A DNA stretch of 64,000 bases from Deltaproteobacteria bacterium (GTDB lineage: Bacteria; Myxococcota_A; UBA9042; DTJE01): contig JAKPTZ010000115.1 of assembly GCA_029555025.1 (NCBI GenBank), positions 24,898-88,897 of the forward strand, read 5' to 3'. How positions within the stretch are numbered: the stretch's first letter is position 1; each line of letters opens with the position of its first letter. Shown in pieces: positions 17,077 to 59,467 of the stretch. Under the pieces are notes generated by a model, which was not told where the DNA came from, made no database searches, and saw only the letters and a list, made by a program, of their open reading frames with translations. Position numbers and translations under genes: made by a program.

Positions 17077-17309
17077 CGGCCAAATCCGGGTTGTCCATTT
17101 TCGGACAAGTGAAAAAGTACGTCGCGGATTGTAACATGGATCCGTCCGGGCCGGGCCGGACGCCTTCGCGCGCCATGCCGTCAGCCAGAGTGCCGGCCCT
17201 TGTCTGGCGGCGCGTTTCGGGCGATCATGCCGGCTGAAGCGGTCTGAATGTTGTGCGGGGATTGTCTGCCGGGCGTCGCAAGTCGATCGCCGGGCATCGG
17301 AGATTCCAG

Positions 17310-33834: not shown

Positions 33835-36567
33835 ATGAAGCGTTTTCAATATGTCATCTGTCTGACCTTTGCGGTGTCTGGATTTGCCGGCTGCGGTGGC
33901 GGCAATCAGATTGGCGACGTGGTCGGGGATGTTCCGGACGAGGATAGGATTGTCGAGTTGGACGTCACGCATGACGAAGGTCAGCCTGACGAAGGCAGGG
34001 ACATCGGAAGGGACGAAGGCGAGCCTGGCGATTCCGTGGATGACCGCTTCGTGGATGATTCCGACGTAAACGGCGATATCGACGACATCGACGGCGGTGA
34101 CGAGTCCGGGGGCGATACCCCTGAAACGGACGGGTGCCCCGGCGAGACGTGCGAGCCGTGCCCGGACGACGGCCTGTTCTGCACCGAGGAGTATCGCGAT
34201 TCGCTGGGCGAATGCCAGATTCGCGTGAAGCCCGAATTCTGCATGATTGGCGGCGAATGCCTTTTCGAGAACCAGCCTTCCCCCGATGACATGTGCCTGG
34301 CTTGCAGGCCGGCCGTCAGCGGTTCCGAGTATTCCCCCGCGGAAGGGATGCCGTGCGACGACGCGGATCCGTGCACTGCCGGCGACACCTGCGATGCGGA
34401 CGGCATTTGCCAGCCGGGCGCCGGTTTCGGATGCGATGACGACAACGAGTGCACCATCGACCGTTGCGACCCCAATTTCGGATGCACGAACACCCCGCGG
34501 GCTTCCACGTGCGACGACCACGATTCGTGCACGTACCAGGATCAGTGCAATGTCCAGACCGGCGTCTGCAAGGGTTTCCCGGTCAACTGCAACGATGGTA
34601 ACGAATGCACCCGTGACTATTGCGATTCGTTCGACGGTTGTCAGCACGAGCCCATTTCGAAGGCTTGCAACGACTTCGACGGGTGCACCTTGAATGATAT
34701 GTGCAATGAAGACGGCGTCTGCCAGGGCACTCCGATGGACTGTTCGGACGGTATTGAATGCACCGTCGATTCCTGCATGTCCGGCGTCTGCCTGAACGAC
34801 TGGCATTACGGCCCGTGCAACGACGGCGACATGTGCACGGATAACGACTTCTGCAATGGTTATCACGAGTGTGCCGGCATCCCGAAGACATCATGCGACG
34901 ATTACAACGTCTGCACCACGGACTACTGCGACCCGGCGGTCGGATGCGTGAACGAATTCAATACGGTCGAGTGCGAGCCCGATTCGGCATGCGAGATAAA
35001 CGGCGTGTGCGCCGGCGGCGTGTGCGTCGGCCAGCCAAGGAACTGTGACAAGGGCAATCCGTGCATGATCTATTCGTGCAATCCGGACACGGGCTGCAAG
35101 GAAATTCCGACAACCGGCGTGTGTGACGACCACAACGCATGCACCATCAACGAAAATTGTTCGACCGGAGCATGCATTCCGCCTGAAGGGCCGGCCGGCG
35201 TCACGAACTGCGACGACTTGAACGACTGCACCGTTGACAACTGCGTTCCGGCCGTCGGTTGCGTGCATACCCCGCAGGAAGGCGAATGCCAGGATCCGAA
35301 TCCGTGCAGCCTGACCGGAACCGGTTTCTGCAGGAACGGCGAGTGCATTTCGAACGTCAGGGACTGCGATGACAACCAGCCGTGCACGCTCGACACGTGC
35401 GACGGCGCGGGCAACTGCATCCATCCGCCGATTTCGGGATTCTGCGATGACGGCAATCATTGCACGTTCGACGAGGTCTGCATCGGCGGCGACTGCATCG
35501 AGGGAAAGAAGGTAGATTGCAACGACTCAAACGTATGCACGCTGGACGAATGCAACCCGGATTACGGATGTGTCTATACGCCGACCGGCGGTTCGTGTTC
35601 CGACGGTGACGTCTGCACCATCAACGACGGGTGCGCAAACGGCACCTGCGTCGGGACGGTCAGGGCATGCGAGGACTACAACGTCTGCACCGACAACGGC
35701 TGCAACAAGACTTCGGGATGCTTCTTCACGCCGAATTCGGTGGAATGCGACGACTTCAACATCTGCACATTCGACGACATCTGCGGCGCCGGTGAATGTC
35801 ACGGCGTGTCGGTGTTCGAGGATCCGGCGACCAAGGCCGCGACTTTGACTTATGGCGTCAACGGCAATCTCGGCCAGGGCGTCGATGTTGATGACGACCC
35901 GTCCACATGCGCGCCGAAGGGCAGTTGCGTCCAGGGTATCGACAACGCGTTTTCCAGGCTGCACTGGCTGTTCAACACCGAGATGTTGAACGCGTCGTCG
36001 GACGGCTCGTGGTCGCTGCTGCTGGAACACGACGGGTTGAAGGTGAACGGCACTGCGTATAACCTGAACCTTTACTGGGGCGCCAGGATTGACCCGGTGA
36101 CCTGTGACCCGACGACTTCCGGATGCAACTACGGCGTCTATACGTCGTCGTTGTCGCCAACCTGCGGGCCGCTTGACGTGTTCGACAACGCGGTGATCAA
36201 CGGCACGAAGCTGAAGGCGGGGGGTGCCACTTACGAAGTCCCGGTCAGCATCGTCTTCGGCGACACCAGGCGCGAACTGGTGCTTTACCGGGCCAAGGTC
36301 ACTGCCAACGTGTCGCTTGCGGGCGGCAAGGTCGTTGGCGGGGCCGGCGCGCTTGGCGGGGCATTCGTTGTCCAGCAGTTGGTCGAAGCGCTTGAATCGA
36401 TGCCGGAAAGCGCGTTCCTGCCGCGTTACAACAAGGAAATCATTCTTGCGTATATCGACATATACCTGAAGCCGGACATCGATCTTGACGGTGACGGAAC
36501 CGATGAGTCGGTTTCCGTCGGAATGCCGTTTTCGATTGTGACAGGTCACCTCATTGGCCCGATTTAA
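33835..36567 (+). CDS. lipoprotein with ~20 tandem 4-Cys modules (Myxococcus-type cysteine-rich repeat) and an unrelated ~290-aa C-terminal domain
   Basis: 910 aa with lipobox AVSGFAGCGGG and an acidic linker. Repeated CxDxNxCTxDxCxxxxGCxxxP modules alternate with CxDxxxCTxxDxCxxGxCxG modules, for example CDDDNECTIDRCDPNFGCTNTP and CDDHDSCTYQDQCNVQTGVCKGFP. Confidence 0.85.
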   Translation: MKRFQYVICLTFAVSGFAGCGGGNQIGDVVGDVPDEDRIVELDVTHDEGQPDEGRDIGRDEGEPGDSVDDRFVDDSDVNGDIDDIDGGDESGGDTPETDGCPGETCEPCPDDGLFCTEEYRDSLGECQIRVKPEFCMIGGECLFENQPSPDDMCLACRPAVSGSEYSPAEGMPCDDADPCTAGDTCDADGICQPGAGFGCDDDNECTIDRCDPNFGCTNTPRASTCDDHDSCTYQDQCNVQTGVCKGFPVNCNDGNECTRDYCDSFDGCQHEPISKACNDFDGCTLNDMCNEDGVCQGTPMDCSDGIECTVDSCMSGVCLNDWHYGPCNDGDMCTDNDFCNGYHECAGIPKTSCDDYNVCTTDYCDPAVGCVNEFNTVECEPDSACEINGVCAGGVCVGQPRNCDKGNPCMIYSCNPDTGCKEIPTTGVCDDHNACTINENCSTGACIPPEGPAGVTNCDDLNDCTVDNCVPAVGCVHTPQEGECQDPNPCSLTGTGFCRNGECISNVRDCDDNQPCTLDTCDGAGNCIHPPISGFCDDGNHCTFDEVCIGGDCIEGKKVDCNDSNVCTLDECNPDYGCVYTPTGGSCSDGDVCTINDGCANGTCVGTVRACEDYNVCTDNGCNKTSGCFFTPNSVECDDFNICTFDDICGAGECHGVSVFEDPATKAATLTYGVNGNLGQGVDVDDDPSTCAPKGSCVQGIDNAFSRLHWLFNTEMLNASSDGSWSLLLEHDGLKVNGTAYNLNLYWGARIDPVTCDPTTSGCNYGVYTSSLSPTCGPLDVFDNAVINGTKLKAGGATYEVPVSIVFGDTRRELVLYRAKVTANVSLAGGKVVGGAGALGGAFVVQQLVEALESMPESAFLPRYNKEIILAYIDIYLKPDIDLDGDGTDESVSVGMPFSIVTGHLIGPI

Positions 36568-45835: not shown

Positions 45836-48800
45836 TTACTGGCAGGCGGCGACGCCCATTCCGGCGAAGTAGTTGTTGCCGTAGCTGGTCCACTGGAGGG
45901 CCGGGTCGAACACGTCGTTGATGATTGTATCCGGAACGCGCACGGATCTGCACAGGGTGTCGTCAGCCGTCGTAGGCCCAGGCGTTGTTCCCCATTCGGT
46001 TCCAGGGTCGAAGCCGACCTGCCCGAACGAGTCGATGACCTCGCCGTCGCAGCGCAGGACAACCGCGTCGTCCCCGTTGAACTGAAGCACGGTGCCGGCG
46101 ACCTGGTCGCAGTTCGGAAGCGCCGTCGCGTCCAGGCCGCTGTGGCAGACGACCCAGGTGTCCCCGGCCGCAAGTGACGATGCGGTCAGGTTGATCGTGT
46201 ATCCGACCGTTGAAGCCCCGTTCTGGTATCCGGTAATGGTGCAAGAGGTCAGGTCGGTTGCAACGGTGCCGATGTTCAGGATCTCGATGAACTTGTTGCT
46301 GCTGGAACCTTCCCCGTATTCGCTGAAGATCAACTGCGGCGGGGGCGTGCAGATGTCGGTTGTGGCGCATTCGGTTTCGTCGCAGTCGGATATGCCGTCG
46401 AGATCGTTGTCCAGGCCGTCGGAACAGCACGCATCGGTGGCCTTTTCATGTCCGTCCTGGTAACAGGCGTCCGAACATTCGTACGTTCCAAGTCCAAGAT
46501 AGTTGTCGGCCGCGAAGTGAATCCAGCCCGCTGTCGGAATGAAGGCATCGTCGCGCACCCTGTCGCCGACCGAAACATAGCATTCCCGACGCATGGTCGT
46601 GTCAACAGTGGTCTTCCCGGAGTCATCCCAGCCACCGGCGCCGGGATCGGTGCCGATCTGGCCGAATACGTCCATCAGGGAGTTTTCGCACCTAAGGACG
46701 ATCGTGTCGTTGCCGTTGACCGAGAAGAGGCCTGACAGGGCGTCGCAGTATGGCGCCAGCGCAAGGTCGGCGTCGTCGTCGCAAACGACCCATGTGTCGC
46801 GGTCATGCAATATTCCGTCACGCGCGATCGCCATCGCGTAAGCCATTTCCGATGTTCCGTCGGGGTATCCCTCGAGGACGCAATTGTTCAGCATCACGTC
46901 GCGTCCCGACAGGTTGGTGATTTCAATCGCATTGTTGACCCCGGTGCCTTCCACGTATTCGCTGATCACCAGGTTGGGGGCGTCGTTGGCGACAATCATC
47001 CGTCCAGCCTGGTTATCCTGGTCGAAGCCGGTGTCCGAACCGTCAAGGTCGCACAGGGTCCATGAACGGCCGCTGTCGGCGCTGAAACGGATGGCGAAGT
47101 CGTATTCGCCGGCAGTCGTCGGCAGGAAAAGGTTGTAGTAGTAAGTATCGGCGTCCTCGTACGGGGAATTGTTTCCCAGGCCGACGAATGCTGCCGTCCA
47201 GGACCATGTGTCGGGAGAACTGCCCTTCGGGCCATATCCGACTTCGGCCTTGACCGCTGGCGGGTTGTCGTTGCCTGTGGTCACATCCGTCATGCCCGCC
47301 TCGATGATCCAGCCGAAAACCTGGAAATAGGTTCCGGTCTGGGAGATGAACGGCGAGTCGGCCTTCAACTGGCAGAAATCAACCGGTTCCTGGCATACGG
47401 GATCGTCGTCGCAGTCGGAATCGTCGCAGTCGGTTACCCCGTCGTTGTCCTCGTCCGTGCCATCATCACAGTCGGTTTCCTCGGTCGGTTCGATGCAGTA
47501 AGGATCAGTCGCGCAGTCCGGGTCGTTGCAGTCGGTCTGGAGGTCGCCGTCGTTGTCCGCGTGGTCGTCGCATGCGGTTTCGACCCCGGCGGTCACAACG
47601 ATCGAACCGGTGGTCGCCGCCGAGTAGCCGTCGATGGTGCCGGCCGGTTCAAGATCCGCGTAAGTCCACGTGTCGCCGCCGTCGGTGCTGAAACGGAACG
47701 CGTAGTCGAAGGTTCCGACCGGAACGTCGTCGAAGGAAACCCCGTACCTGTCGTCCGAACCGTCAATGTCGTCGAAATAGACCGCGTCGTACCAGGACCA
47801 CAGGATATGTCCGTCGGGGTTGCTGCCGTCAGGGCCCCATCCACCCTGGGCCATCACTCCCAGGCCCTGGCCCGCGACGTTGGTGATGCCCTGCACGAAT
47901 ACCCTGCCGAAAAGTACTTCAGGGATCTCGGCGAAGACCCAGGCGCCGGTGCCGGGCATCATGACGGCCGCGTACCCGATGACCGGCGGCAGGCATTCGA
48001 CCGCCTCGTCGCAGTCGGGATCCATGCAGTCCTTCAGTCCGTCAAGATCGTCGTCATTCAGGTTGTCGCAACAGGTTTCCCTGCCACCCACATGGCATGC
48101 CTGGGCGCAGAGGTTTGAACCAAGATCCAGGAAGGAGTCCCGCGGGAAAGACCACCATTCGAGCCCGGGATCGAACTCGTTCGAAAGGTCGGTGTCCCCG
48201 AAGATTACATCACAATGACGGCGCAGGGTGTGTCCGACGCTGGTGACTTCGCCCGTTCCCCATCCCGAGGCGCCCGGGTTTTCCCCGCGCCGGCCGAACG
48301 AATCCATCAGCTTGTCTTCGCACGTCAGGCTGATTGTGTCGTTGCCGTTGAAATTCAAGAGGGATCTGAATTCGTCACAGTAAGGGGTAAGGTCGGTCGA
48401 GACCCCGGTCTGGCACATCACATAGGACGCCGCATCCTGAAGAACGCCGTCCTCGACATTGAAGATGGTCGATGGGCTGACCGCCCCGTCGGTGTAAATG
48501 GATATCGCGCAGTTCTCAAGGTTGAGGTCACGGCCGCTCAGGTTCAGCAACTCGATCGCCTTGTCGTTCCCCGTGCCGTCAACGTATTCGGTGATGAGCA
48601 CGATCGGATCCGACACGATTTCCAGCTTGCCGGCGTCCGCCACGTCGTATCCGTCGTCGGTTCCGTCAAGATCGCAGTACTTCCAGGAATATCCGCCGTC
48701 GGCCGAGAACCTGAAAGCCATATCGTAATGGCCTTCATCCGCGACCGGCACCACGAATGAATACCGGTAGCTGTCGGCGTCGTCCCTTCCGCTCAGGTTG

Positions 48801-51187
48801 CTTGCGGTCGGAGAAGCGTTGTCCCATGTCCAGTCGTTGCCGGGAATCGAGTCCGCCGGGCCGTAGCCGTACTGTCCAACCAGGCCGGCCGGGTTGTCGT
48901 TGCCGTTCGTGACATCGGTCTTGCCAGCGACGAAGACGTACCCGATGGCGTTGACCGTCATTCCCGTGGAACCGCGAACCATGGCCGGCTCGAAAGTCCT
49001 GCACCAGTCAACCGGAATGAAGCAGGTCTCGGTCGCCTTGCAATCCGGATCGTCGCAGTCGGCAAGGCCGTCACGATCCGAGTCAAAGGTGTTGGCGCAG
49101 CAGGTTTCCTTTTCGTTGGCATAGCAGTCGCCCTCACACAGCCGGAATCCGAATCCCTGCCACACATCCTGGGGAAGGGACATCCATTCCACGGCTTTGA
49201 AGGCCGTTGCCGCGGCGCCGGTGCCGGCGGTGACCGAGCAGTCACGACGCAGCGTGTGATTCAGGGTGGTCAGCGGCTCGATTCCCCAGCGGTCGCCTGG
49301 ATCCACGCCAATGACGCCGAAGACGTCCTGAACCGCTTCACCGCACTTGAGTTCGATTGCATCGTCACCGTTGAAGTTGAGCCGGCTTGAAAGCAGGTCG
49401 CAGAATACGGCGGAGCCGGCCGCAAGTGCATCGTGGCAGACTGTGAACATCGCGCCCGGGGCAAGATCAAGAGCCGGCAGCGTGATGACGCTGCTGGTCG
49501 TCAAGGCACCGTTGAAGAACACCGACACGGTGCATTCGCCCAGCGGTGCCGGGAAAGCCCCCGCGTTGATGATTTCGATTGCCTTGTTGTTGCCGGATCC
49601 TTCCATGTATTCCGAAATCAGCAGTTGGTGCGGCGGCTTGATGGTGATGCTTCCGGCATTTTCGGCCGCGTATCCGTTGTCGCTGCCATCGGTGTCGCAG
49701 TAAATCCACGTTGCGCCGTCGTCGCCCGATACCCTGAACGCGAAGTCGCGGGCCAGCGACATGTCGGTGATGGCCGGAACGGTCACGACACCGTTCCAGA
49801 TGTCCGAAGACGCATCGACCGCGTCCATGTCGGGGGTTGCCGGAAGCCAGTCACCCCAGGCGAATCCGGTCGGATCGCCAGCATCCGGCCCAATCCCATA
49901 CTGAACATGTACCTTTGGATGGGCATCGTATTTGTCCGTCGTGTCGGTGATTCCGGGCGCCGTCACCTTGACGACCGCGGTGAACGTGTCCCCGGAAGGT
50001 CCGGTATGGGTGGTTGGCGATTCAACGATGCAGGAAACATTATCGACCGGGCATACGAATTTGCAGGATTCCTCCTCGCAGTCGGTTTTGCCGTTTTCGT
50101 CGTTGTCCATCTCGTCTTCGCAGCACGTCTCGAACCGGGCAAGACAGGATCCTTCCATGCAGTAATCGCCGCCGGTGCAGTCGTTTCCGTCGTTGCAAAG
50201 GGAATCGACCAGGTTTTCGTGAACGCATCCGGTTTCCGTGTCGCAAAGATCGCTGGTGCATTCGTTGCCGTCGTCGCAATCAATGTCGGTTCCGGCAGAG
50301 CATGAACCGTTCAGGCAGAAATCGTTTTCGGTGCAGGCGTTTCCATCCTGGCAGGCCCCGTCGTTGAAGACCATCGTGCAACCGGCCTGGGCATCGCAGG
50401 CATTATCAGTGCAGACGTTGCCGTCATCGCACAGAAGCGCGTCCGGCACCCCGACGCATTCGCCGTCGGCGCATGAGTCGCCTGTCGTGCAATCGACGCC
50501 ATCCTGGCAGGGTTCGCCCTGGTGGATGCTGATGTTGATGCAGTCGCCGGTTTCAGGATCGCAGCCGACAGTCCGGCAGAAAAGGCCGAGGGTATCTTCG
50601 CAGACCGGGATGGTTTCTGCCGGAATGTGGCAGACAGAAGGTGTCACGGCCAGGTTGCACCTGTACGAACCGTTGCACTTGTTTTTGTCGTCGTACCACG
50701 CGCAGTCGCTGTCAGTGCTGCAGTTGCAGTTGTTCTGGCCCGGCTGGCAGACGTGATCCGCATCGCACTTGTCGTCTATGGTGCAAAGGTCGCCGTCCTC
50801 GCATGTCGCGTCCGCTTCAAGCCAGACACGAACACACGCGCACCGGTCGCAGGATGCCCTCTCACACAGGCCGAGGTCGTCGAACGCATCCTCGCATTCC
50901 TCATCCTGCGTGCATTCGCACACTTCGGGCATTTCAAGGGGGACATCGGTGACGCCCTCGTCCGGCACGTCCTGGACTGCATCGGGATCGATCGTTTCCT
51001 GGAAAATTTCTTCCCTGGGCTCGTCGCCGGTGTCCGGAATCAGGATTTCCGGCGCGGTGTCCAACTGGACATCCGGCATAACGTCATCACCCGGAAGTTC
51101 GGATACATCCGGCTGACCGCCGCCGCCGCCGCATGAAAGCAGCATTGAAGCAAGGATGAGCGCGGTGACTCTGGCTGTTGATTTCAT
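45836..51187 (-). CDS. giant surface lipoprotein: Cys-rich repeats + four beta-sandwich modules + four lamin-tail-domain (LTD) modules joined by DxDxDG/Cys linkers
   Basis: ORF 45836..51199; start preferred at 51187 (MKSTARVTALILASMLLSCGGG, a lipobox). LTD-like cores LLISEYMEGSGNNKAIEIINAG, VLITEYVDGTGNDKAIELLNLSG, LVISEYVEGTGVNNAIEITNLSG and LIFSEYGEGSSSNKFIEILNIG. Each module carries an FNGDD/FNGND/VNGND string followed about 12 residues later by (D/S)(V/S)FG. Confidence 0.85.
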   Translation of the reverse strand: MKSTARVTALILASMLLSCGGGGGQPDVSELPGDDVMPDVQLDTAPEILIPDTGDEPREEIFQETIDPDAVQDVPDEGVTDVPLEMPEVCECTQDEECEDAFDDLGLCERASCDRCACVRVWLEADATCEDGDLCTIDDKCDADHVCQPGQNNCNCSTDSDCAWYDDKNKCNGSYRCNLAVTPSVCHIPAETIPVCEDTLGLFCRTVGCDPETGDCINISIHQGEPCQDGVDCTTGDSCADGECVGVPDALLCDDGNVCTDNACDAQAGCTMVFNDGACQDGNACTENDFCLNGSCSAGTDIDCDDGNECTSDLCDTETGCVHENLVDSLCNDGNDCTGGDYCMEGSCLARFETCCEDEMDNDENGKTDCEEESCKFVCPVDNVSCIVESPTTHTGPSGDTFTAVVKVTAPGITDTTDKYDAHPKVHVQYGIGPDAGDPTGFAWGDWLPATPDMDAVDASSDIWNGVVTVPAITDMSLARDFAFRVSGDDGATWIYCDTDGSDNGYAAENAGSITIKPPHQLLISEYMEGSGNNKAIEIINAGAFPAPLGECTVSVFFNGALTTSSVITLPALDLAPGAMFTVCHDALAAGSAVFCDLLSSRLNFNGDDAIELKCGEAVQDVFGVIGVDPGDRWGIEPLTTLNHTLRRDCSVTAGTGAAATAFKAVEWMSLPQDVWQGFGFRLCEGDCYANEKETCCANTFDSDRDGLADCDDPDCKATETCFIPVDWCRTFEPAMVRGSTGMTVNAIGYVFVAGKTDVTNGNDNPAGLVGQYGYGPADSIPGNDWTWDNASPTASNLSGRDDADSYRYSFVVPVADEGHYDMAFRFSADGGYSWKYCDLDGTDDGYDVADAGKLEIVSDPIVLITEYVDGTGNDKAIELLNLSGRDLNLENCAISIYTDGAVSPSTIFNVEDGVLQDAASYVMCQTGVSTDLTPYCDEFRSLLNFNGNDTISLTCEDKLMDSFGRRGENPGASGWGTGEVTSVGHTLRRHCDVIFGDTDLSNEFDPGLEWWSFPRDSFLDLGSNLCAQACHVGGRETCCDNLNDDDLDGLKDCMDPDCDEAVECLPPVIGYAAVMMPGTGAWVFAEIPEVLFGRVFVQGITNVAGQGLGVMAQGGWGPDGSNPDGHILWSWYDAVYFDDIDGSDDRYGVSFDDVPVGTFDYAFRFSTDGGDTWTYADLEPAGTIDGYSAATTGSIVVTAGVETACDDHADNDGDLQTDCNDPDCATDPYCIEPTEETDCDDGTDEDNDGVTDCDDSDCDDDPVCQEPVDFCQLKADSPFISQTGTYFQVFGWIIEAGMTDVTTGNDNPPAVKAEVGYGPKGSSPDTWSWTAAFVGLGNNSPYEDADTYYYNLFLPTTAGEYDFAIRFSADSGRSWTLCDLDGSDTGFDQDNQAGRMIVANDAPNLVISEYVEGTGVNNAIEITNLSGRDVMLNNCVLEGYPDGTSEMAYAMAIARDGILHDRDTWVVCDDDADLALAPYCDALSGLFSVNGNDTIVLRCENSLMDVFGQIGTDPGAGGWDDSGKTTVDTTMRRECYVSVGDRVRDDAFIPTAGWIHFAADNYLGLGTYECSDACYQDGHEKATDACCSDGLDNDLDGISDCDETECATTDICTPPPQLIFSEYGEGSSSNKFIEILNIGTVATDLTSCTITGYQNGASTVGYTINLTASSLAAGDTWVVCHSGLDATALPNCDQVAGTVLQFNGDDAVVLRCDGEVIDSFGQVGFDPGTEWGTTPGPTTADDTLCRSVRVPDTIINDVFDPALQWTSYGNNYFAGMGVAACQ

Positions 51188-51318
51188 CTGTTCCCCCAAA
51201 AGATTTCCACAATGACCAGAGGATGATAACCCCGTGCACGCGCGCGTTCAACAACGGCGGGGAAAAATGCGTTGATCTCGGCAGGCTTGCGATACGGAAG
51301 TAGTTCGGGGTGAGCCGG

Positions 51319-51753
51319 TCAGCGCCTTCCCTGAAGTGCCCTGGAAGCAAGCCTGGTCACTGATTCCTCGGGATCCTCGGCCGCAAGCCTGGCAAGTTCG
51401 GCGCGTATCTGGGGAACATCGCGCAGCGGCCTCATGCAGCGGACGGCGAACATCCTTACCGCGACGGCCTCGTCCCTGGAAAGAACCTTCAGTATTCCGA
51501 TTTTTTCAAACAGGGGCTGTCTTTGAAGGATTTCACGCGCCTGGGCTGGGCGCTTGTCCGCCAGGGCGGCCGACACCCGATTCAGGGATTCGCCCTTGAA
51601 GCTGACGTGGAACATGGCGATGCGATCCAGGCTTGTCTCGTGCCACCAATAGACCGCGTATCCGGCCCCCGCGCAGATTGCGAAGAAAAGCAGGATCAAA
51701 GCCATCTGTCTGTTGCTGACCGTCATCCCAGCAGCCTCCGTCGGCGCGCGCAT
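51319..51753 (-). CDS. hypothetical single-pass membrane protein
   Basis: 144-aa ORF; alternative start at 51726 (MTVSNRQMALILLFFAICAGAGYAVYWW, a TM segment). Helical C-terminal part. 120 nt upstream of the giant lipoprotein gene, on the same strand. Confidence 0.5.
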   Translation of the reverse strand: MRAPTEAAGMTVSNRQMALILLFFAICAGAGYAVYWWHETSLDRIAMFHVSFKGESLNRVSAALADKRPAQAREILQRQPLFEKIGILKVLSRDEAVAVRMFAVRCMRPLRDVPQIRAELARLAAEDPEESVTRLASRALQGRR

Positions 51754-53255: not shown

Positions 53256-55061
53256 CGGCCATTCACCCCCGGCAGGCGCCCATTCCCAGATCTGGCGCCC
53301 GGCAATCTGGCGAACAAGCCGCAGACCGTCGGCGCGCGGCATTTTTCCAAGTTGCATCTCGCGTGGCCCGTAAAGAATCCACCTGATTCCGGCGTTGTTC
53401 AGGAAGCCGGCCGTCCGCGCCTCATCCGGTTCATCGGAATAAAACCAGCGCACAAGGGCGGCCTTTTCCTGATACCGCGTCGAAAGGAACCACTGGCCGA
53501 CAAACACAGGCTTCCCGGCTTTCCACGGAACAATCTGGGCATCGAAAGGGTCGCACAGGACCCCACCGTCCGGAAGCGTTTCAAGTTCCTTCAGGAGTGC
53601 AAGGTGATCCTTTCCGGCCCGCGCCGCCGTCCTTGTCGCCGTCGGGTTGACGTCCAGCACCAGCCCCGCGGCCGAATTCAGCGACGCCAGAACCACGAAG
53701 GCGGCAATGGCGCCGCCCGGCCATGAAGTCCGCCCGCCCGCCGCCTGCCGCCTTTGAACCAGGGCGAACAGTCCGGCAATCTGCAGGATCAGGAATGGAA
53801 CCAGGAACGAAAACTGAAATTTCACCCCGGTCACAAACGGGTTGGCCATCATCGCGAAACCGGTGACGAACCACAGCAGCAGCCATCGCATGACGTGGCG
53901 ATCAATCGTGTTGCGGCGCATCACCAACCCCAGCGGAAGCAGCATCCACGGTCCATAGACTATCGGATAGATTATCGGGGGATAGCCCAGCTTCCACAGA
54001 CCGGTCTGTGCGTTTGACGCCGCGACCACCGGATCCTGCTGGGACCAGGTGATGAAGACGGCCACCAGTGCCGGTCCGGCGAGCGCCGGCAAGTTGATGA
54101 ACAGCGACCTTTTAAGGCTGGTGCCCATCGGCGGAACGACCACCGCGACAGCGACCAGCAAGCCCCAGACGATTGCCGAATATGGGTGTATGAACCACAG
54201 TGCCGCGAACACCATTCCGCGAACCACTCCGGGCAGAAAATCGGCCGGTTTCGAGACGGTGTCCATGCTTCCGACTCGATGATCCCCGGTCTGCGCGCGA
54301 ATCCTGGCAAGCTCGGCCGATCTGTCGGCATTCTTCACCGCGGCCTGTTCAAGCCACCTGATTTCCAAAAGGATCATCAGGGTAATCAGTGTCATCGGGA
54401 TCGCCCAGACAAGGTTGGTCGAAGCCCAGAACACGCTGAAATTCCAGGGGTTGTCAATGAAATTGACCCAGTCCAGCCCGGTCGATGCCATCCTGTCCCG
54501 GAAGAATGGACGGACAAGCCAGTCCAGCCCGCCGGCAAAGAGAACAAATGCGTGGGCCGCGACGGCCTTCCTGCCTTCCTTGAAGACGGCCTGGACAAGT
54601 TTCCACAGCACCAGGCAGAAAGCGGCCAGAACCAGCAGCCGGAGTCCGTGCCATACAACCGGGTCGGGAAGGCCGGTGATGCCCCTGACCGCGCCCGCGA
54701 TAACCAGGCCGACCATCAGGAATCGTCCGTCCTGCCTGGCGGTGGTAAATAAATTTTTTGTCAGCAGCGACCCGTCGCGGGCGGTCTGGGTCGAATACAT
54801 CATATAGGCGAAATGGTCGGTCGGAAGATGCCTGAACCCCAGGAAGGATGAACTTGAATCGTGGGTTCCTGCAAGGGGGGCAGCGCAGATCCAGGCCTGG
54901 GCGATGATGAACGTGGCCGAAAGCGCCAGGGCGATATTACGGTACCGACGGGGAGAGGCCACTGTTACCCCCTGCCTGGTTTGCTGCATCGGTGCCGGTC
55001 GGTTCGGTCGAACCGGAATCGAGGCCCGAAAGTATTTCGTCCGCAGCATCCTGGTTGCCAA
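53232..55061 (-). CDS. polytopic integral membrane protein (function unknown; GT-C-like glycosyl/lipid transferase is only a guess)
   Basis: 609-aa ORF with more than 10 hydrophobic segments and a soluble C-terminal ~130 aa. The true start is probably internal (for example ATG at 54989), because the first 125 nt overlap the upstream gene. Confidence 0.62.
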   Translation of the reverse strand: MATRMLRTKYFRASIPVRPNRPAPMQQTRQGVTVASPRRYRNIALALSATFIIAQAWICAAPLAGTHDSSSSFLGFRHLPTDHFAYMMYSTQTARDGSLLTKNLFTTARQDGRFLMVGLVIAGAVRGITGLPDPVVWHGLRLLVLAAFCLVLWKLVQAVFKEGRKAVAAHAFVLFAGGLDWLVRPFFRDRMASTGLDWVNFIDNPWNFSVFWASTNLVWAIPMTLITLMILLEIRWLEQAAVKNADRSAELARIRAQTGDHRVGSMDTVSKPADFLPGVVRGMVFAALWFIHPYSAIVWGLLVAVAVVVPPMGTSLKRSLFINLPALAGPALVAVFITWSQQDPVVAASNAQTGLWKLGYPPIIYPIVYGPWMLLPLGLVMRRNTIDRHVMRWLLLWFVTGFAMMANPFVTGVKFQFSFLVPFLILQIAGLFALVQRRQAAGGRTSWPGGAIAAFVVLASLNSAAGLVLDVNPTATRTAARAGKDHLALLKELETLPDGGVLCDPFDAQIVPWKAGKPVFVGQWFLSTRYQEKAALVRWFYSDEPDEARTAGFLNNAGIRWILYGPREMQLGKMPRADGLRLVRQIAGRQIWEWAPAGGEWPSILQQSK

Positions 55062-55875
55062 TCTGGTTCAGAAGATCGCTCAGGTCGCGAATCCAGGCCT
55101 GGTGCCTGATCCCCCAGCTTCCGGCCCTCAGGGAATCCGCCGCGGCTTTCGCAATCTCAAGCGCGGAGTCCTCGTCCTCGTCGGCTTCCCAGAGGCCCCT
55201 GGCAAGATAAATCCGGTTCGGCGGATAATCGGGAAACTGCTCGACTGCCTTGCGAAGCATCTCGATTCCCTTTTCGGGATCGCCGATTCCGGCCGGCCAC
55301 GGCGGCGCCTTGATCAGGAGGTAACCCATGGTCCGCAGGGGCCCGCCGCTGTCGAGTTCCGGCGCCTCGCGCACGGCCCTGCCAAGGTGGCGCTGAAGTC
55401 TTCCCAGATACTTCATTGCGGTCAGAATGCTGTCACGAACCGCGATTCCAAGGTTGATCGAGTAGTAATACGATGTCGCAGGGTCGATGGCCAGTCCTGT
55501 TCCCATCGAGTATTCGGCCCACGCGACGCCTTCCCAGGCAAGCGACTTCCTGCGTTCGTCACCGGCTGCCCCCGCCGGGCTGGATTCCGCAAGGAGGCTG
55601 CAAATCCGGGATGCCGTCAGCGCCTCGTGCGCACGGGGCTGCCTTTCGGGCGGCTGCATGTTCCTGACTGCCTGCAGGGCGCAACGCAACTGATCCTGGC
55701 CTGCCGTCAACGGATCCGTCCTGTCACGGGTCAGTGCTTCTTCGTTCCCGGGACAATCGTCCGGAAGATCAAGTTTGAAAAGGTTGCCTTTGTAGGCCGG
55801 GCTGCAGCCGGCGAGGAAAAGAACCGTGACGGAGAAGATGAACAGAACGGCGTGCCTTCCGGGAGCTATTTCCAC
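54937..55875 (-). CDS. TPR-like lipoprotein (possibly TatT-family)
   Basis: 312 aa with lipobox VLFLAGCSP and a helical-repeat body. The segment GYLLIKAPPWPAGIGDPEKGIEMLRKAVEQFPDYP resembles my memory of TatT-family proteins. Family assignment is tentative. Confidence 0.6.
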   Translation of the reverse strand: MEIAPGRHAVLFIFSVTVLFLAGCSPAYKGNLFKLDLPDDCPGNEEALTRDRTDPLTAGQDQLRCALQAVRNMQPPERQPRAHEALTASRICSLLAESSPAGAAGDERRKSLAWEGVAWAEYSMGTGLAIDPATSYYYSINLGIAVRDSILTAMKYLGRLQRHLGRAVREAPELDSGGPLRTMGYLLIKAPPWPAGIGDPEKGIEMLRKAVEQFPDYPPNRIYLARGLWEADEDEDSALEIAKAAADSLRAGSWGIRHQAWIRDLSDLLNQIGNQDAADEILSGLDSGSTEPTGTDAANQAGGNSGLSPSVP

Positions 55876-56681
55876 AGTCCTCTCGCCTCGTTAAGGAGAG
55901 CGTTGTCGGCTTTGACGAATCCGGAAATTCCAAACAGCTTGCAGAACTGCTTTCCTTCCTTGTCGTCGCAGAATCTTTCCATGGTCCTGATGAAACCTTC
56001 CCGATCCTTCGCCGTGGTCTTTGCCTTGCTGGCAACCAGAGGCATGATCGGCAGGGCCTTCGATGTGAAGATTACTTCAAGGTCGCGTGCCCAGTCCAGA
56101 GACTTTGACGCGTTGAACTGCTGCTCGGTCACCAGCACGGCGTCAATCTTGCTTCCGGTCAGGTCGCGCAGTGCCTTGATCGAGCCGCGCGCCTTTTCCG
56201 CGACGAACGAGGAAAGCGGGTATTTCCCGGCCAGAACGACCTTCTCGACGAACGCGGGCTCGGCCAGCGGCGTGCCGCTGATCTTTTTTCCCTTCAGTTC
56301 GTCCATCGTCTTGAACGTGCCCTTGCGGACAAGGACGCGGAATGTTTCCGTCGTCTTGCCGTCCATCTTCGGCTGGACGACCGGCTCGAGGCCTTCCGGG
56401 TTCTGAAGCAGGAATCCAAGCGAGACGATGGCGTAGTCGGGCTTTGCGGCCATCAGGGCGCCACACTTCGTCATGTCCGAAGTGAACTCGGAAGTGAACG
56501 AGCCGGAATCCCAGCCCGACATCTTCTCCATCACGCGCAGCATCTGGTCGGTGGCCGGTTTGGCGTCGGCCTCGCGGACGCTGCCGCCGGGATAGCAAAG
56601 GACAAGTGTCTTTCCGGCTGCCGGGACACAAGCCGCGACCGCAATCAACGCAACAATGGATGCCGTGAAAAACCTGTTCAT
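55866..56681 (-). CDS. periplasmic substrate-binding-protein-like lipoprotein/secreted protein (PhnD/PBP2-like)
   Basis: ORF 55866..56747. Start preferred at 56681 (MNRFFTASIVALIAVAACVPAAG), which makes an ATGA overlap with the MMPL stop. PBP2-like strings LVLCYPGG and MDELKGKKISGTPLAEPAF, plus GSKIDAVLV. Confidence 0.68.
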   Translation of the reverse strand: MNRFFTASIVALIAVAACVPAAGKTLVLCYPGGSVREADAKPATDQMLRVMEKMSGWDSGSFTSEFTSDMTKCGALMAAKPDYAIVSLGFLLQNPEGLEPVVQPKMDGKTTETFRVLVRKGTFKTMDELKGKKISGTPLAEPAFVEKVVLAGKYPLSSFVAEKARGSIKALRDLTGSKIDAVLVTEQQFNASKSLDWARDLEVIFTSKALPIMPLVASKAKTTAKDREGFIRTMERFCDDKEGKQFCKLFGISGFVKADNALLNEARGLWK

Positions 56682-59467
56682 TTCTTTCTCCTGTCGGTCA
56701 GTTGTGCCATCAGCGGCGCAAGCAGAAGCGCGCACGCAAGGCAGCATGCAAGGCCGATCGTAACACCCAGGCCAAGCGTCGAGATGCCCCTGTATTCGGC
56801 AAGCGAAAGGGCACCGATACCGGCTATCGTGGTCAACGCAGCCACAAGTATAGGAATTCCCGCGACGCGGATGATCTGCCAGGGTCCGTACTGGCGCATT
56901 TCATCGAACCGGTGGGCGAACCAGATGCCGTAATCCAGCGCCAGCGCCATCAGCAGCGGCAGGGCGATGATATTCGCGTAGTTGTACATGTAGCCATGAG
57001 TCTTGTTCAGGATTGCCAGGATTCCCAGCATGATTCCCTCGCCAATCAGAAGCGGAAGAGAGGCGACGAGGAAGACCGGGATGCTGCGCAGAACCAGCAT
57101 CAGGAATGCCATCGCAACAATAATCGCCAGGGCCGTGCCGCTGAAGAAGCTTGAACGCGCAAGCTCCGCCTGGACGTTGTGCGTGGTCGGGAAACCGGTC
57201 GCCGCCGGGTTGATTTCGTAGATGTCCTTCATCAGGCGCTGAAGGAACGAAATGTTATAGACGGAATCGGCCGGATAGACGTAGGTGGCGATACTTCCGT
57301 CATTTCCGAAGAACCTTGAACGAAGGTTGTCGGGAAGATCAGTCGGTTCCAGAACCTTGGCGTCCTTCCACTTCGCCAGTTCCCGAAGCATGTATCTGGC
57401 GTCCCCGACGATCGCGGTCAGGAAAGCCTGGTTAGCCGTCCCCGCCTTCTCCGGATCTGCCTGGAGCCTTTCGATGATCCTGGCAAGGCGATCCCGGACG
57501 CCGTCGATGGCCCCGACCAGATCGGCATGTCCGGCGCTGGAGGCTGATTCCTGGTAATCGTCAATCATGTCCATAACCTTTTCAAGGATTGCCGCAATCC
57601 GCAGCGGCGCGCCGTTTTCCGGCAGCACGAAGTTCTTTTCGTCCATGATGTATCTGGCCACGTCCGATTCCGACAGGATTCGGCCGACCTTGCGGGCGGG
57701 TTCCACCCTTTCTGCCGCATCGGACGGGAAGAACTGCATCGGGCTCTGCACCTTGGCAACGGTGTTCAGCTTCTGGGCCTTATCGCCGATCTCGCGAGCT
57801 TCCTCCTGGGTCTTCGCCACAAGGATGACGACTTCCGACTGGTAATCGCTTTCCTTGACCATCCGTTTGGAATAGATCGCGGTTTCCGAATCCGCTGGCA
57901 GCATGTTAAGGACGTCGTAATCAAACGGCAGGTTGATGCCCTTGTAGGCACCGACTGCGGCGAGAATGACGGCCACCGTGACGATTGCCGCCGCGATCGG
58001 CTTCGGGATTTTCTTTCCCGGGTCGTCCTTTCCTTCCATGCCGGTGTCCTGTCCGAGTGCCTCGGCAGGCCTCGGCTTCAGCAGCGCGAACAGCGCTGGA
58101 AGCAGGGTGAACGTCGAAATCTGGACGGTTGCCACGCCGCACAGGGCAACGATTCCCAGTTCTGAAAATCCGGTGAATTCAACGGTTCCAAGTGCCCCGA
58201 ACACCATCATCGAAGCAAGTCCGGAAGTCACGACCGGTCGGGCCGAAGCCCCGGTTCCGACGCGGATGGCGTCCATCAGCGGCAGTCCGCGCTTCATCTC
58301 CTCGATGATCCGCGATGAGATGAAAACCCCGTAGTCAACGCCAAGCCCGAACAGCACCGCCGTGAAGGCGGTGGTAACCATGTTCATGTGGCCGACGGTG
58401 AAGTACATCATCGAGAAGGCCCAGACCGACCCGAAGCCCATGGCGCCGAATACGACCAGTCCGCGGCGGAACGAACGCATGACGAAAGTGATGATCAGAA
58501 GGATCAATATGCCTGCGCCGGCGATTGTCCAGGTGACGCCCTTCTGGATGTAGCTGAATTCCTCGTAGATTGTGGCAGGCATTCCGGCAAGGCCCGTCGT
58601 CGGAACCGCGCGTCCGGCCGCCTTCCATTCCGCCTTCAGCGCGTCGTTGGTTGATCTTACGTTCTCATAGAAAGGCTTGATTGCGGTGAATTCCTCGGAG
58701 CCGATGGCCTTTCGTACGAACACGAAAAGCATCGAACCGTCGTGGGAATCGTAGAAGCCGTTGCCGGTGACCATCTTGCGTGCTTCCGGCTGATCGGCCA
58801 GCATCTTTTCCCACGCGATCCTGGTCGCCTTGCTGTCCGGTTCAAGCCAGCGCAGCCATTCGTCCAGGAAGAACTGCATGCCGTTCAGTGAAGCTCTGGC
58901 CGAATCCATGTCGATTTCGCCCATCGGGATGGCCGGGGGCTCCTCGAAATAGCGGTTGGCCGCGTCAAGCGCCTCGTCCAGGCTTGACGGCATCTTTCCA
59001 TCCATCGACAGGAGTCCGTCCATGAATGTCGCAGCCTTGTCGAACTGCTCGTGGGGAAGGATGGTGTATGCATGGGAAACGAAAAAGTTCAGGTCAAGAC
59101 GGCTGTCGGCGGCGGACACCTCGGGAAGCTCTTCAAGTCGGGACGCCAGTTCCGCGGCGTACTTCTCCAGTTCCGGCCGTTCGATGCCTTCGATTGCGAT
59201 TATCAGGTCCGAGGCGGCGCCGAAGTTTTCCATGTAGTGTTCGAAACGTTCAACTTCCGGGCTGGTTCTGTCCAGCAGCGCCGTGCGTGATGTAAGGAAA
59301 GGCATCTGGCTCAGCAGATAGAGGGACAGCGCGCACAGGGCCAGGCCTATACCCACAAATACAAGTGGACGTCTCGAGGAGGCCGCGGCAATCGTCTGGA
59401 AAAAATGCTCGAATCGCTTTTCGAAATTCTTCAACATGTTAAGACCTGGGCGAGTTAATAATTTCAA
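56678..59467 (-). CDS. MMPL/RND-superfamily exporter (HpnN-like architecture)
   Basis: 929 aa with two 6-TM bundles, each preceded by a large periplasmic loop. Repeated RND-type motif GLGVDYGVFISSRIIEEM / ALALDYGIWFAHRFDEM. Confidence 0.88.
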   Translation of the reverse strand: MKLLTRPGLNMLKNFEKRFEHFFQTIAAASSRRPLVFVGIGLALCALSLYLLSQMPFLTSRTALLDRTSPEVERFEHYMENFGAASDLIIAIEGIERPELEKYAAELASRLEELPEVSAADSRLDLNFFVSHAYTILPHEQFDKAATFMDGLLSMDGKMPSSLDEALDAANRYFEEPPAIPMGEIDMDSARASLNGMQFFLDEWLRWLEPDSKATRIAWEKMLADQPEARKMVTGNGFYDSHDGSMLFVFVRKAIGSEEFTAIKPFYENVRSTNDALKAEWKAAGRAVPTTGLAGMPATIYEEFSYIQKGVTWTIAGAGILILLIITFVMRSFRRGLVVFGAMGFGSVWAFSMMYFTVGHMNMVTTAFTAVLFGLGVDYGVFISSRIIEEMKRGLPLMDAIRVGTGASARPVVTSGLASMMVFGALGTVEFTGFSELGIVALCGVATVQISTFTLLPALFALLKPRPAEALGQDTGMEGKDDPGKKIPKPIAAAIVTVAVILAAVGAYKGINLPFDYDVLNMLPADSETAIYSKRMVKESDYQSEVVILVAKTQEEAREIGDKAQKLNTVAKVQSPMQFFPSDAAERVEPARKVGRILSESDVARYIMDEKNFVLPENGAPLRIAAILEKVMDMIDDYQESASSAGHADLVGAIDGVRDRLARIIERLQADPEKAGTANQAFLTAIVGDARYMLRELAKWKDAKVLEPTDLPDNLRSRFFGNDGSIATYVYPADSVYNISFLQRLMKDIYEINPAATGFPTTHNVQAELARSSFFSGTALAIIVAMAFLMLVLRSIPVFLVASLPLLIGEGIMLGILAILNKTHGYMYNYANIIALPLLMALALDYGIWFAHRFDEMRQYGPWQIIRVAGIPILVAALTTIAGIGALSLAEYRGISTLGLGVTIGLACCLACALLLAPLMAQLTDRRKK

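Follow-up and report, generated by a model that had tools for sequence, protein, structure and literature searches.

What does a very large surface protein do with four copies of the lamin-tail domain (LTD) when no enzyme accompanies them? The question is raised by a gene in the window analysed here, a 64,000-nt stretch of DNA. Bacterial LTDs were first noticed twenty years ago and, to our knowledge, have yet to be assigned a role. The domain is repeated and enzyme-free in this protein and its relatives, which are therefore cleaner material than the nucleases ExeM or Xds for probing LTD ligands. We propose, with slightly more confidence than doubt, that the gene product is a non-enzymatic fibre of the cell envelope, with an adhesive or scaffold role, in an uncultured Myxococcota resembling Anaeromyxobacteraceae.

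The ORF (45836..51199, reverse strand) was present, and its probable start is the ATG at 51187, preceded by GGGGGAA; the resulting product of 1783 aa is the one that the preliminary description had assigned to 45836-51187. Full-length orthologues showed 97% (P0001) and 49-52% identity (P0002-P0005), and those at 49-52% sit in conserved synteny in Anaeromyxobacteraceae/Myxococcota MAGs. Paralogous modules within the protein shared 27-44% identity in amino acids and 43-54% in nucleotides. Modules were closer to their positional orthologues (45-61% identity) than to paralogues in the same protein, with the exceptions of B4 and L3 compared with P0005, where these two positions lack an equivalent. 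The intact orthologues and diverged repeats rule out a pseudogene or an assembly artefact, and the earlier remark that the internal modules had diverged at the DNA level was confirmed.

Modules were delimited by MAFFT alignment and HMMs; self-BLAST of the protein returned the identity match only. Three module types, the LTD (L), a second beta-sandwich (B) and a linker (K), follow one another in the order K-B-L, K-B-L, K-B, K-K-B-L, K-L, which agrees with the order B-L, B-L, B, B-L, L given previously. Together with the N-terminal regions they tile the whole protein with no residue left over. Pfam and NCBIfam scans of the protein revealed no catalytic domain, and because the modules cover the full sequence there is no room for one. 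The absence of a nuclease, protease or glycosidase module, as first described, was thus upheld.

Table 1. Features of the LTD gene, its product and the region upstream, in window coordinates.
Feature	Residues (aa)	Position (nt)	Strand	Evidence
Whole CDS, 1783 aa and stop, ATG at 51187	1-1783	45836..51187	-	ORF; full-length orthologues
Predicted lipoprotein signal peptide MKSTARVTALILASMLLS/C (Cys19, predicted lipidated residue)	1-19	51131..51187	-	inspection; orthologue lipoboxes
Acidic Cys-free tether, probably disordered, net charge -20	20-89	50921..51130	-	composition
Cys-rich region, 41 Cys	90-352	50132..50920	-	Pfam Dicty_CTDC
K1, linker	353-386	50030..50131	-	NF033662; custom HMM
B1, Asp-box-bearing E-set/Ig-like sandwich	387-519	49631..50029	-	alignment; custom HMM
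L1, ExeM-type LTD	520-690	49118..49630	-	PF00932 31.8 bits, E 2e-7; custom HMM
K2, linker	691-729	49001..49117	-	NF033662; custom HMM
B2	730-860	48608..49000	-	AF2 model pLDDT 94; custom HMM
L2, LTD	861-1033	48089..48607	-	PF00932 32.9 bits; structure model; custom HMM
K3, linker	1034-1068	47984..48088	-	alignment; custom HMM
B3, sole B without LTD partner and without Cys pair	1069-1201	47585..47983	-	alignment; custom HMM
K4a + K4b, tandem linker pair	1202-1272	47372..47584	-	NF033662 55.9 bits, 2 stretches; custom HMM
B4	1273-1403	46979..47371	-	alignment; custom HMM
L3, LTD	1404-1581	46445..46978	-	PF00932 36.6 bits; custom HMM
K5, linker	1582-1616	46340..46444	-	alignment; custom HMM
L4, C-terminal LTD without B partner	1617-1783	45839..46339	-	PF00932 50.9 bits; custom HMM
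Promoter-like sequence (TTGAAC-17-TATCAT), ~36 nt 5' of the start codon		51223..51251	-	consensus match only
144-aa protein upstream, one hydrophobic segment		51319..51753	-	syntenic in four relatives

The whole protein matched the LTD family PF00932 with 134.6 bits summed over four stretches (E 2e-39). Scanned singly, the four L modules gave E values of 2e-7 to 2e-13; two of them alone fall just below the gathering cut-off of 34.3 bits, with E about 1e-7. A custom module HMM placed the LTDs at nt 49136-49630, 48107-48607, 46475-46978 and 45842-46339, in agreement with the four positions originally proposed. Each L module is an ExeM-type LTD of about 165 aa, and the terminal position of L4 is kept in all orthologues. 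In the structure model of a K-B-L unit, L2 is an all-beta, Ig-like sandwich with pLDDT mostly 85-95. Fold searches with the models gave Ig-type matches only, and no lamin structure was among the top matches of this model, which were dominated by the B domain. By sequence, the L modules are closest to small stand-alone secreted LTD proteins and not to nucleases, a point absent from the preliminary description. All 120 of the closest LTD homologues are acidic, the acidity of this LTD type spans many phyla, and 106 of the 120 have even Cys counts.

Pfam holds no model for the B module. In its AF2 model (pLDDT 94), B2 folds as a generic E-set/Ig-like sandwich that carries one Asp-box, and this fold excludes a hidden catalytic domain within B. 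A sialidase-type BNR/Asp-box beta-propeller was also rejected: each B carries a single Asp-box (S.D.G..W) in a sandwich, and the sialidase matches (E>=0.09) reflect the motif only. PDB sequence searches with the B and L profiles returned chance-level matches only (sialidase Asp-boxes, MD-2). The best AF2 model of K-B-L (pLDDT 87.5, pTM 0.78) is all-beta, with B directly abutting L; the other four models reached a confidence of 71-77, which leaves the rigidity of the B-L junction uncertain. An exhaustive HMMER search showed that B belongs to a large unnamed family of 2684 clusters at 50% identity; a word-indexed search with the B profile retrieved only 4 proteins. B usually alternates with LTDs or forms tandem arrays, and a single protein may contain as many as 18 B-LTD pairs; neither this habitual pairing nor the size of the family is in the preliminary description. 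Among 18 large proteins that contain B, 16 also have LTDs, and Pfam detected no nuclease, protease or glycosidase domain in any of these 18 relatives.

The linkers between modules, first described by the pattern CC..D.D.DG..DC.DPDC, proved to be the acidic double-disulfide repeat acid_disulf_rpt (NF033662, CC.D..DND.DG..DC.D.DC), a 4-Cys unit of about 30 aa. The whole protein scored 46.1 bits over 5 stretches against a cut-off of 41 bits, and the K4a+K4b pair scored above it by itself. The custom HMM found six copies where NCBIfam found five stretches, and in the alignment DxDxDG motifs are present in six linker copies. The Pfam models TSP_3, EF-hand and dockerin did not match the linkers. The DxDxDG loops may well bind Ca2+. 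Disulfide stabilisation is suggested by the two Cys of the B domain, which are both present in B1, B2 and B4 and both missing in B3; gain or loss together is the pattern expected of a disulfide pair. The predicted bonds are one in B, between its N-terminal Cys and the Cys of a YCD motif, three in each L module and two in each K linker.

At the N-terminus, inspection revealed a lipoprotein signal with a basic n-region (MKSTAR), a hydrophobic h-region (VTALILASM) and a lipobox (LLSC, in the context ASMLLSC). Its Cys19, counted from the ATG at 51187, corresponds to Cys23 in the TTG-start numbering and would be the lipidated residue. All 4 orthologues inspected have lipoboxes (LALSC, FALSC, TAAAC, FAVSC). 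The lipobox and acidic linker of the preliminary description both stand. All 41 Cys of the region beyond the tether fall within C90-C348. Its C-terminal half consists of about five repeats of about 25 aa each, C.DGN.CT.D.C....GC, which match Dicty_CTDC (PF00526, cut-off 27 bits) with 29.9 bits in the whole protein and 38.7 bits over 4 stretches in aa 86-356. These repeats had been called Myxo-type. More than 3000 proteins, chiefly from Myxococcota MAGs, do share the region, which fits that label in distribution; however, the NCBIfam scan of aa 86-356 gave no model at E<=1, TIGR02232 included, within HMMER filters that may hide very weak matches.

The protein contains 18% Asp+Glu and has a pI of about 4. 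Every module is poor in Lys and Arg and carries a net charge of -8 to -22; that of the mature protein amounts to -256. Halophily was rejected as the source of this acidity because cytoplasmic-type neighbours have an ordinary pI of 5-9.

Among known proteins, the ExeM/Xds/NucH nucleases (NF033680) have an N-terminal LTD of about 150-165 aa of the same subtype as the L modules, with the signature sEYvEGssnNKA.Ei.N ... fNGDDA ... GQ.G.DPG.eW ... TlRR ... FdP..eW. The L modules keep 29-34 of the 38 most conserved residues of the ExeM LTD, and both proteins are exported and envelope-associated, as predicted for the present one. The likeness ends there: the match to NF033680 (262 bits over four stretches, against the 1300 required for full length) covers only positions 25-174 of 884, Pfam and NCBIfam found neither the OB-fold region nor the EEP nuclease domain in the protein, there is no GlyGly-CTERM, and the LTD is fourfold and B-paired. 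Stand-alone secreted LTD proteins (about 200-240 aa, some with PEP-CTERM) are 36-54% identical to L over the whole module, as acidic, and also without a catalytic domain. They are annotated 'lamin tail domain-containing protein' or 'predicted extracellular nuclease'. They differ in having a single domain and different anchors and in occurring in many phyla, and many are Cys-free, compared with 6-7 Cys per L module. Giant non-catalytic proteins of Myxococcota and other bacteria (P0125, 6922 aa; P0152, MCA9557179.1, annotated as a 'lamin tail domain-containing protein' of a Myxococcales bacterium) show the same B/LTD alternation in up to 18 pairs. Their spacers of about 240 aa contain an EGF-like PC.PNPC Cys stretch and a classical LTD (..TE.M.DP....D..GEW.EL.N), in place of the combination of K linkers with ExeM-type LTDs. 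Eukaryotic lamin tails share the Pfam family and the beta-sandwich fold with the L modules, which differ from them in their presumably extracellular and disulfide-bonded context, an additional C-terminal extension of about 55 aa and the lack of a coiled-coil rod. Searches of the literature for LTDs in Myxococcus or for tandem LTD surface proteins found nothing relevant.

The ExeM-type LTDs raise the possibility, suggested in the preliminary description, that the protein is a scaffold capturing extracellular DNA, in which the LTDs would bind DNA, possibly via Ca2+ or Mg2+ bridges, and tether the cell to matrix DNA or retain DNA for nucleases encoded elsewhere. The strong match to the ExeM LTD segment speaks for it, as does the recurrence of LTDs in DNA-handling exoproteins, namely ExeM/Xds, archaeal ComA-like MBL proteins, Hvo_1477 and Izemoplasma nuclease loci (PMC6085458, PMC5118699, PMC8289736). 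Against it, the modules and the closest LTDs are uniformly acidic with few basic residues, those closest relatives stand alone without nuclease domains, and scans of the protein and of window ORFs revealed no OB fold, HhH or nuclease. Moreover, in vivo the LTD is fully dispensable in Xds and not required in ExeM for extracellular DNA degradation, which proceeds near wild type; the activity of ExeM without its LTD is slower in vitro but not abolished, and membrane association of Xds does not need the LTD (PMC6085458, PMC6746945). Given the strongly acidic modules and these deletions, DNA binding is unsupported, and we regard this scaffold as unlikely.

Sugar binding is a further candidate role. 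Among the best structural matches to B are CBM21, which binds starch and glycogen, the E-set domains at the N-terminus of GlgE and amylases, a CBM that binds agarose, and cellulase modules of the X1/Fn3-like type; a UDP-glucose dehydrogenase gene lies directly downstream. A fibre in which B or the LTD is a carbohydrate-binding module, anchoring to the cell's own or prey polysaccharide, would be consistent with these observations; we nevertheless consider it improbable. The charge itself could be the function: a polyanionic envelope protein might act as a cation sink, or nucleate minerals, by binding Ca2+, Mg2+ or metal ions at the cell surface. The extreme acidity and the DxDxDG motifs would fit, as would further Cys-rich lipoproteins of very high acidity encoded in the window and a MopE-type metal-binding motif in another of its proteins. 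However, the position-specific conservation of folded modules exceeds what a charge reservoir needs, and LTDs of this type are generally acidic across many phyla. We consider this function very unlikely.

The most likely reading is a surface fibre with a structural or adhesive role, of a general kind already known. Domain content and full tiling support the scaffold interpretation of the preliminary description, with a modular lipoprotein that is large, non-enzymatic and rich in Cys and Asp. The protein would be exported and lipidated on Cys19, with the outer membrane as its most likely destination; its outer-membrane or surface location, its rigidity and its adhesive or scaffold role are what we infer from this architecture. 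The 70-residue acidic tether and the presumably disulfide-knotted Cys-rich region would then lie near the membrane. Beyond them would extend a chain of 'beads', each a beta-sandwich (four B and four ExeM-type LTDs). These would be spaced by the acidic double-disulfide linkers, whose DxDxDG loops would stiffen the chain on probable Ca2+ binding. The four LTDs, especially the conserved distal one, may act as multivalent low-affinity binding units, whose target would be either a polymer outside the cell or the surface of a neighbouring cell; as neither ExeM nor Xds needs its LTD to degrade extracellular DNA (PMC6085458, PMC6746945), the term 'binding unit' is an assumption. The protein would thus work like Ca2+-rigidified Ig-repeat adhesins and matrix proteins.

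RTX/BIg adhesins (SiiE, LapA, MpIBP) are chains of Ig repeats that are rigidified by Ca2+ and project binding modules. The likeness lies in the proposed mode of working and not in descent: they are non-homologous, RTX repeats, a T1SS signal and BIg Pfam domains were not found in the present protein, and its anchor is a predicted N-terminal lipid. To a specialist, it would be an ordinary further multi-LTD surface protein and hold no surprise.

A more far-reaching reading, which we think quite unlikely, is that B and the LTD form a fixed two-domain 'supermodule' that defines an undescribed class of giant non-enzymatic surface fibres, with the LTD as a multivalent matrix-organising binder. Such fibres may have thousands of members with up to 18 B-LTD pairs, and may be stabilised by Ca2+ and disulfides at least in the clade studied. 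If so, the LTD would organise the matrix, for example via cation-bridged DNA or self-association, as an extracellular prokaryotic counterpart of the lamin-tail meshwork, and this would be the first defined function of a bacterial LTD. The unnamed B family, with its about 2700 clusters, could in any case become a family model.

The orthologues keep the architecture but have between 2 and 4 B-L units and between 5 and 11 K linkers, a variation typical of stalk-like surface proteins. The LTD protein is 49-52% identical to its orthologues, compared with 72-80% for the adjacent BstA-like and UDP-glucose dehydrogenase genes, and such faster divergence is usual for exposed proteins. The relatives come from MAGs, some possibly of anaerobic habitats, where about 51 disulfides would need a suitable oxidation system. 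Functional coupling to the UDP-glucose dehydrogenase was rejected, since its gene is convergent and extra genes intervene in L001. The window also encodes the acidic Cys-rich lipoproteins and the MopE-motif protein mentioned above, and the LTD protein belongs with several other lipoproteins, very acidic and rich in Cys, which together probably give the surface of uncultured Myxococcota cells its character. The gene for the 144-aa protein upstream is syntenic with the LTD gene in all 4 relatives, and a functional link between the two is putative.

The minus strand of the window carries one long open reading frame (ORF) at 45836..51199, and its first in-frame ATG, at 51187 and just preceded by GGGGGAA, yields a product of 1783 aa. 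As read from the sequence, the N-terminus (MKSTARVTALILASMLLSC) starts with a basic n-region, continues with a hydrophobic core, and then has the lipobox LLSC, after which comes GGGGG. An equivalent lipobox with the Gly after it is kept in all four distant orthologues, and the protein is presumably lipidated at its N-terminus. A promoter-like TTGAAC-17-TATCAT, a match to consensus only, lies ~36 nt upstream of the ATG. The product contains 103 Cys, 13.2% Asp, and just 4.1% Lys+Arg.

Using MAFFT and HMMs built on the internal repeats, we derived an architecture of lamin-tail domain modules (LTD; L), Asp-box Ig-like sandwich modules (B), and acidic double-disulfide linkers (K). The modules tile the protein completely, which leaves no stretch where a catalytic domain could hide, and none is present, as the preliminary description had stated. 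Its coordinates for the four L modules agree with the HMM placement, and its ORF, lipobox, modules, and LTDs were all recovered. Identity between paralogous modules is 27-44% at the protein level and 43-54% at the DNA level; hence the repeats are old and, as had been proposed, not an assembly artefact.

Coordinates of the modules of the LTD protein and of other features in the window
Feature	Position	Strand	Remarks
Signal peptide	aa 1-19
Acidic tether	aa 20-89
Cys-rich region	aa 90-352
Module chain	after Cys-rich region		K1-B1-L1, K2-B2-L2, K3-B3, K4a-K4b-B4-L3, K5-L4
L1	nt 49136-49630	-	internal-repeat HMM
L2	nt 48107-48607	-	internal-repeat HMM
L3	nt 46475-46978	-	internal-repeat HMM
L4	nt 45842-46339	-	internal-repeat HMM
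144-aa protein	nt 51319-51753	-	directly upstream of LTD gene
bstA/bstB/bstC-like cluster	nt 54937-59467	-	two genes upstream of LTD gene
910-aa lipoprotein	nt 33835-36567	+
1089-aa acidic protein	nt 17253-20522	+
Helicase-like and BrxD-like ORFs	nt 10693-13832	-	adjacent ORFs
Lon-related protease homologue	nt 8178-10610

The protein passes the thresholds of three families. Pfam annotation, proposed earlier as a check, scored the modules as LTD (PF00932; 134.6 bits, E 2e-39, four stretches; 31.8-50.9 bits for single modules) and also matched Dicty_CTDC; the third is the NCBIfam acidic double-disulfide repeat NF033662. The N-terminal Cys-rich repeats had been called 'Myxo-type', which is right only in that they occur in over 3000 proteins, most of which come from Myxococcota MAGs; the Pfam match is Dicty_CTDC, and no NCBIfam model matched them. 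The ExeM model NF033680 matched partially (262 bits; cut-off 1300), over positions 25-174 of 884, its LTD part. Membership in the ExeM/NucH family was rejected because the OB fold and EEP domain are absent and the score is far under the cut-off.

The L unit spans ~165 aa, compared with 109 positions in the Pfam model, and is the counterpart of the LTD part in the ExeM model. Outside the orthologues, its nearest relatives in a profile search were small stand-alone secreted proteins of many phyla, annotated 'lamin tail domain-containing protein' or 'predicted extracellular nuclease', some with a PEP-CTERM anchor. We aligned 120 of these with the four L modules and obtained the signature sEYvEGssnNKA.Ei.N ... 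NG ... fNGDDA.vL ... D..GQ.G.DPG.eW ... T..nTlRR ... GD ... FdP..eW ... gLG, and the L modules retain 29-34 of its 38 positions conserved at ≥90%. Finding stand-alone, non-enzymatic proteins as the nearest relatives of these LTDs is a useful addition. These widespread ExeM-type LTD proteins (P0292-P0411; ~200-240 aa) are all acidic, some have a W..IK.LYR-like tail, and many bear the nuclease name yet lack any nuclease domain.

The B modules matched nothing in Pfam or NCBIfam; all that stands out in their sequence is one Asp-box (FRFSADGGxSW), with weak motif-level sialidase matches. Two Cys (VDWC ... YCD) are both present in B1, B2, and B4 and both absent from B3, which holds in all orthologues and fits a disulfide. 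The best K2-B2-L2 structure model (pLDDT 87.5, pTM 0.78; other models 71-77) is all-beta, with B passing straight into L. Fold searches with the K-B-L unit returned only two-Ig-domain matches and the lipoprotein BT_1938 (DUF4876). The six K linkers (E-T-C-C-x-D-x-x-D-N-D-x-D-G-x-x-D-C-x-D-x-D-C-x(4-5)-C) account for the NF033662 match. Their DxDxDG loop resembles known Ca2+-binding loops and may bind Ca2+; the protein had no match to TSP_3, EF-hand, or dockerin in Pfam.

In an exhaustive HMMER search, the B profile matched 2684 representative proteins at E≤1e-3 (1735 at ≤1e-10, 374 at ≤1e-30), and single proteins carried as many as 31 copies. This Asp-box E-set sandwich is not covered by a Pfam model, even though its clusters at 50% identity number 2684. 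The best 148 proteins showed two patterns: pure tandem B arrays (such as P0126, 4592 aa, 31 copies), with an N-terminal TIG domain in two of the three scanned, and B alternating with ~240-aa spacers (such as P0125, 6922 aa, 18 B-LTD pairs). The spacers contain classical LTDs by Pfam, preceded in the consensus by an EGF-like PC.PNPC stretch. Among 18 large B-containing proteins, 16 had LTDs; PKD, Big_5, TIG, PPC, Kazal, beta-helix, and MopE motifs also occurred, and domains of nucleases, proteases, or glycosidases were not detected. Non-catalytic B/LTD repeat proteins therefore form a broad class, in which the LTD protein is of medium size and differs by having LTDs of the ExeM type and K linkers. 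Defining this B family and its habitual pairing with LTDs is a further useful result. LTDs were reportedly noted in bacteria by Mans et al. In outline, bacterial proteins with several LTDs were known already, and 'lamin tail domain-containing protein' is the name that NCBI gives to relatives.

Five full-length orthologues (P0001, 97% identity; P0002-P0005, 49-52%) come from 'uncultured Anaeromyxobacteraceae bacterium' and 'Myxococcota bacterium' MAGs among GTDB genomes, and NCBI names them hypothetical proteins of Myxococcota. The comparison of module numbers suggested in the preliminary description revealed a kept architecture with variable counts: two to four B-L pairs and five to eleven K linkers, one to five of them before the last LTD, but always an unpaired B3-type module and an unpaired terminal LTD. 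Each module is nearest to its positional orthologue (45-61%), except B4 and L3 in the comparison with P0005, which lacks counterparts there. Conservation is even along the chain.

The scaffold or adhesion reading of the preliminary description is favoured, and we consider a structural or adhesive fibre somewhat probable. It would start from an N-terminal lipid anchor and an acidic tether, pass into a base knotted by disulfides, and extend as a chain of sandwich domains that double-disulfide linkers would stiffen by binding Ca2+. The LTDs would serve as multivalent binding units for some extracellular polymer or surface. We infer the protein's lipidation, location, disulfides, Ca2+ binding, and ligand alike. 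Such a fibre would work like Ca2+-rigidified Ig-repeat adhesins, to which it is not homologous.

The role of bacterial LTDs, in the words of the literature, 'has not yet been elucidated'. The idea of eDNA binding derives from their recurrence in DNA-handling exoproteins (PMC5118699, PMC8289736) and has no other basis. However, the net charge lies between -8 and -22 in every module and is -256 for the mature protein, which speaks against direct DNA binding. This acidity is a trait of the LTD family (-9 to -25 in all 120 closest LTDs) and not of the proteome, since neighbouring proteins have pI 5-9. Moreover, ExeM without its LTD degraded extracellular DNA in vivo at near wild-type level, and in vitro slowly yet significantly (PMC6085458), and removal of the LTD from Xds left both nuclease activity and membrane association unchanged (PMC6746945). 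The strong acidity and these deletions therefore favour the structural or adhesive fibre over direct DNA binding; eDNA binding stays unsupported, and the argument against it is itself useful. Capture of eDNA through cation bridges is unlikely, glycan or EPS binding via B or L equally so, and a polyanionic cation sink appears more doubtful still.

All relatives share the gene order bstA-like, bstB-like, bstC-like, 609-aa ORF, divergent 464-aa ORF, 144-aa membrane protein, LTD gene. Downstream are convergent UDP-glucose dehydrogenase and CNNM/CorC genes, separated from the orthologue by three extra genes in one related locus (L001). The LTD protein is conserved at ~50%, compared with 72% for the BstA-like neighbour and 78-80% for the dehydrogenase. 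The bst-like cluster is syntenic in four related Myxococcota MAG loci. Because all scores lie under the equivalog cut-offs (BstA NF045600, 979 bits full-length against 1400; BstB NF045601, 275, and BstC NF045602, 188, against 350), its products are classed as homologues and putative sterol transporters. The 144-aa protein has one hydrophobic segment and no family match, and is found beside the LTD gene in all four relatives (47-58% identity); it may be a partner of the LTD protein or merely reflect conserved gene order.

Elsewhere in the window, the 910-aa protein is a second very acidic Cys-rich lipoprotein (10.1% Cys, pI 4.05); its lipobox, FAGC, precedes GGG, and it carries five Dicty_CTDC repeats and no B, L, or K modules. 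In the 1089-aa protein, a Kelch beta-propeller occurs together with Cys motifs of the MopE type, which are putatively metal-binding. Adjacent ORFs weakly match a DEXH helicase (ligase-associated or Cas3-like core) and BREX BrxD and, with the Lon-related protease homologue, may form a defence-type gene neighbourhood.
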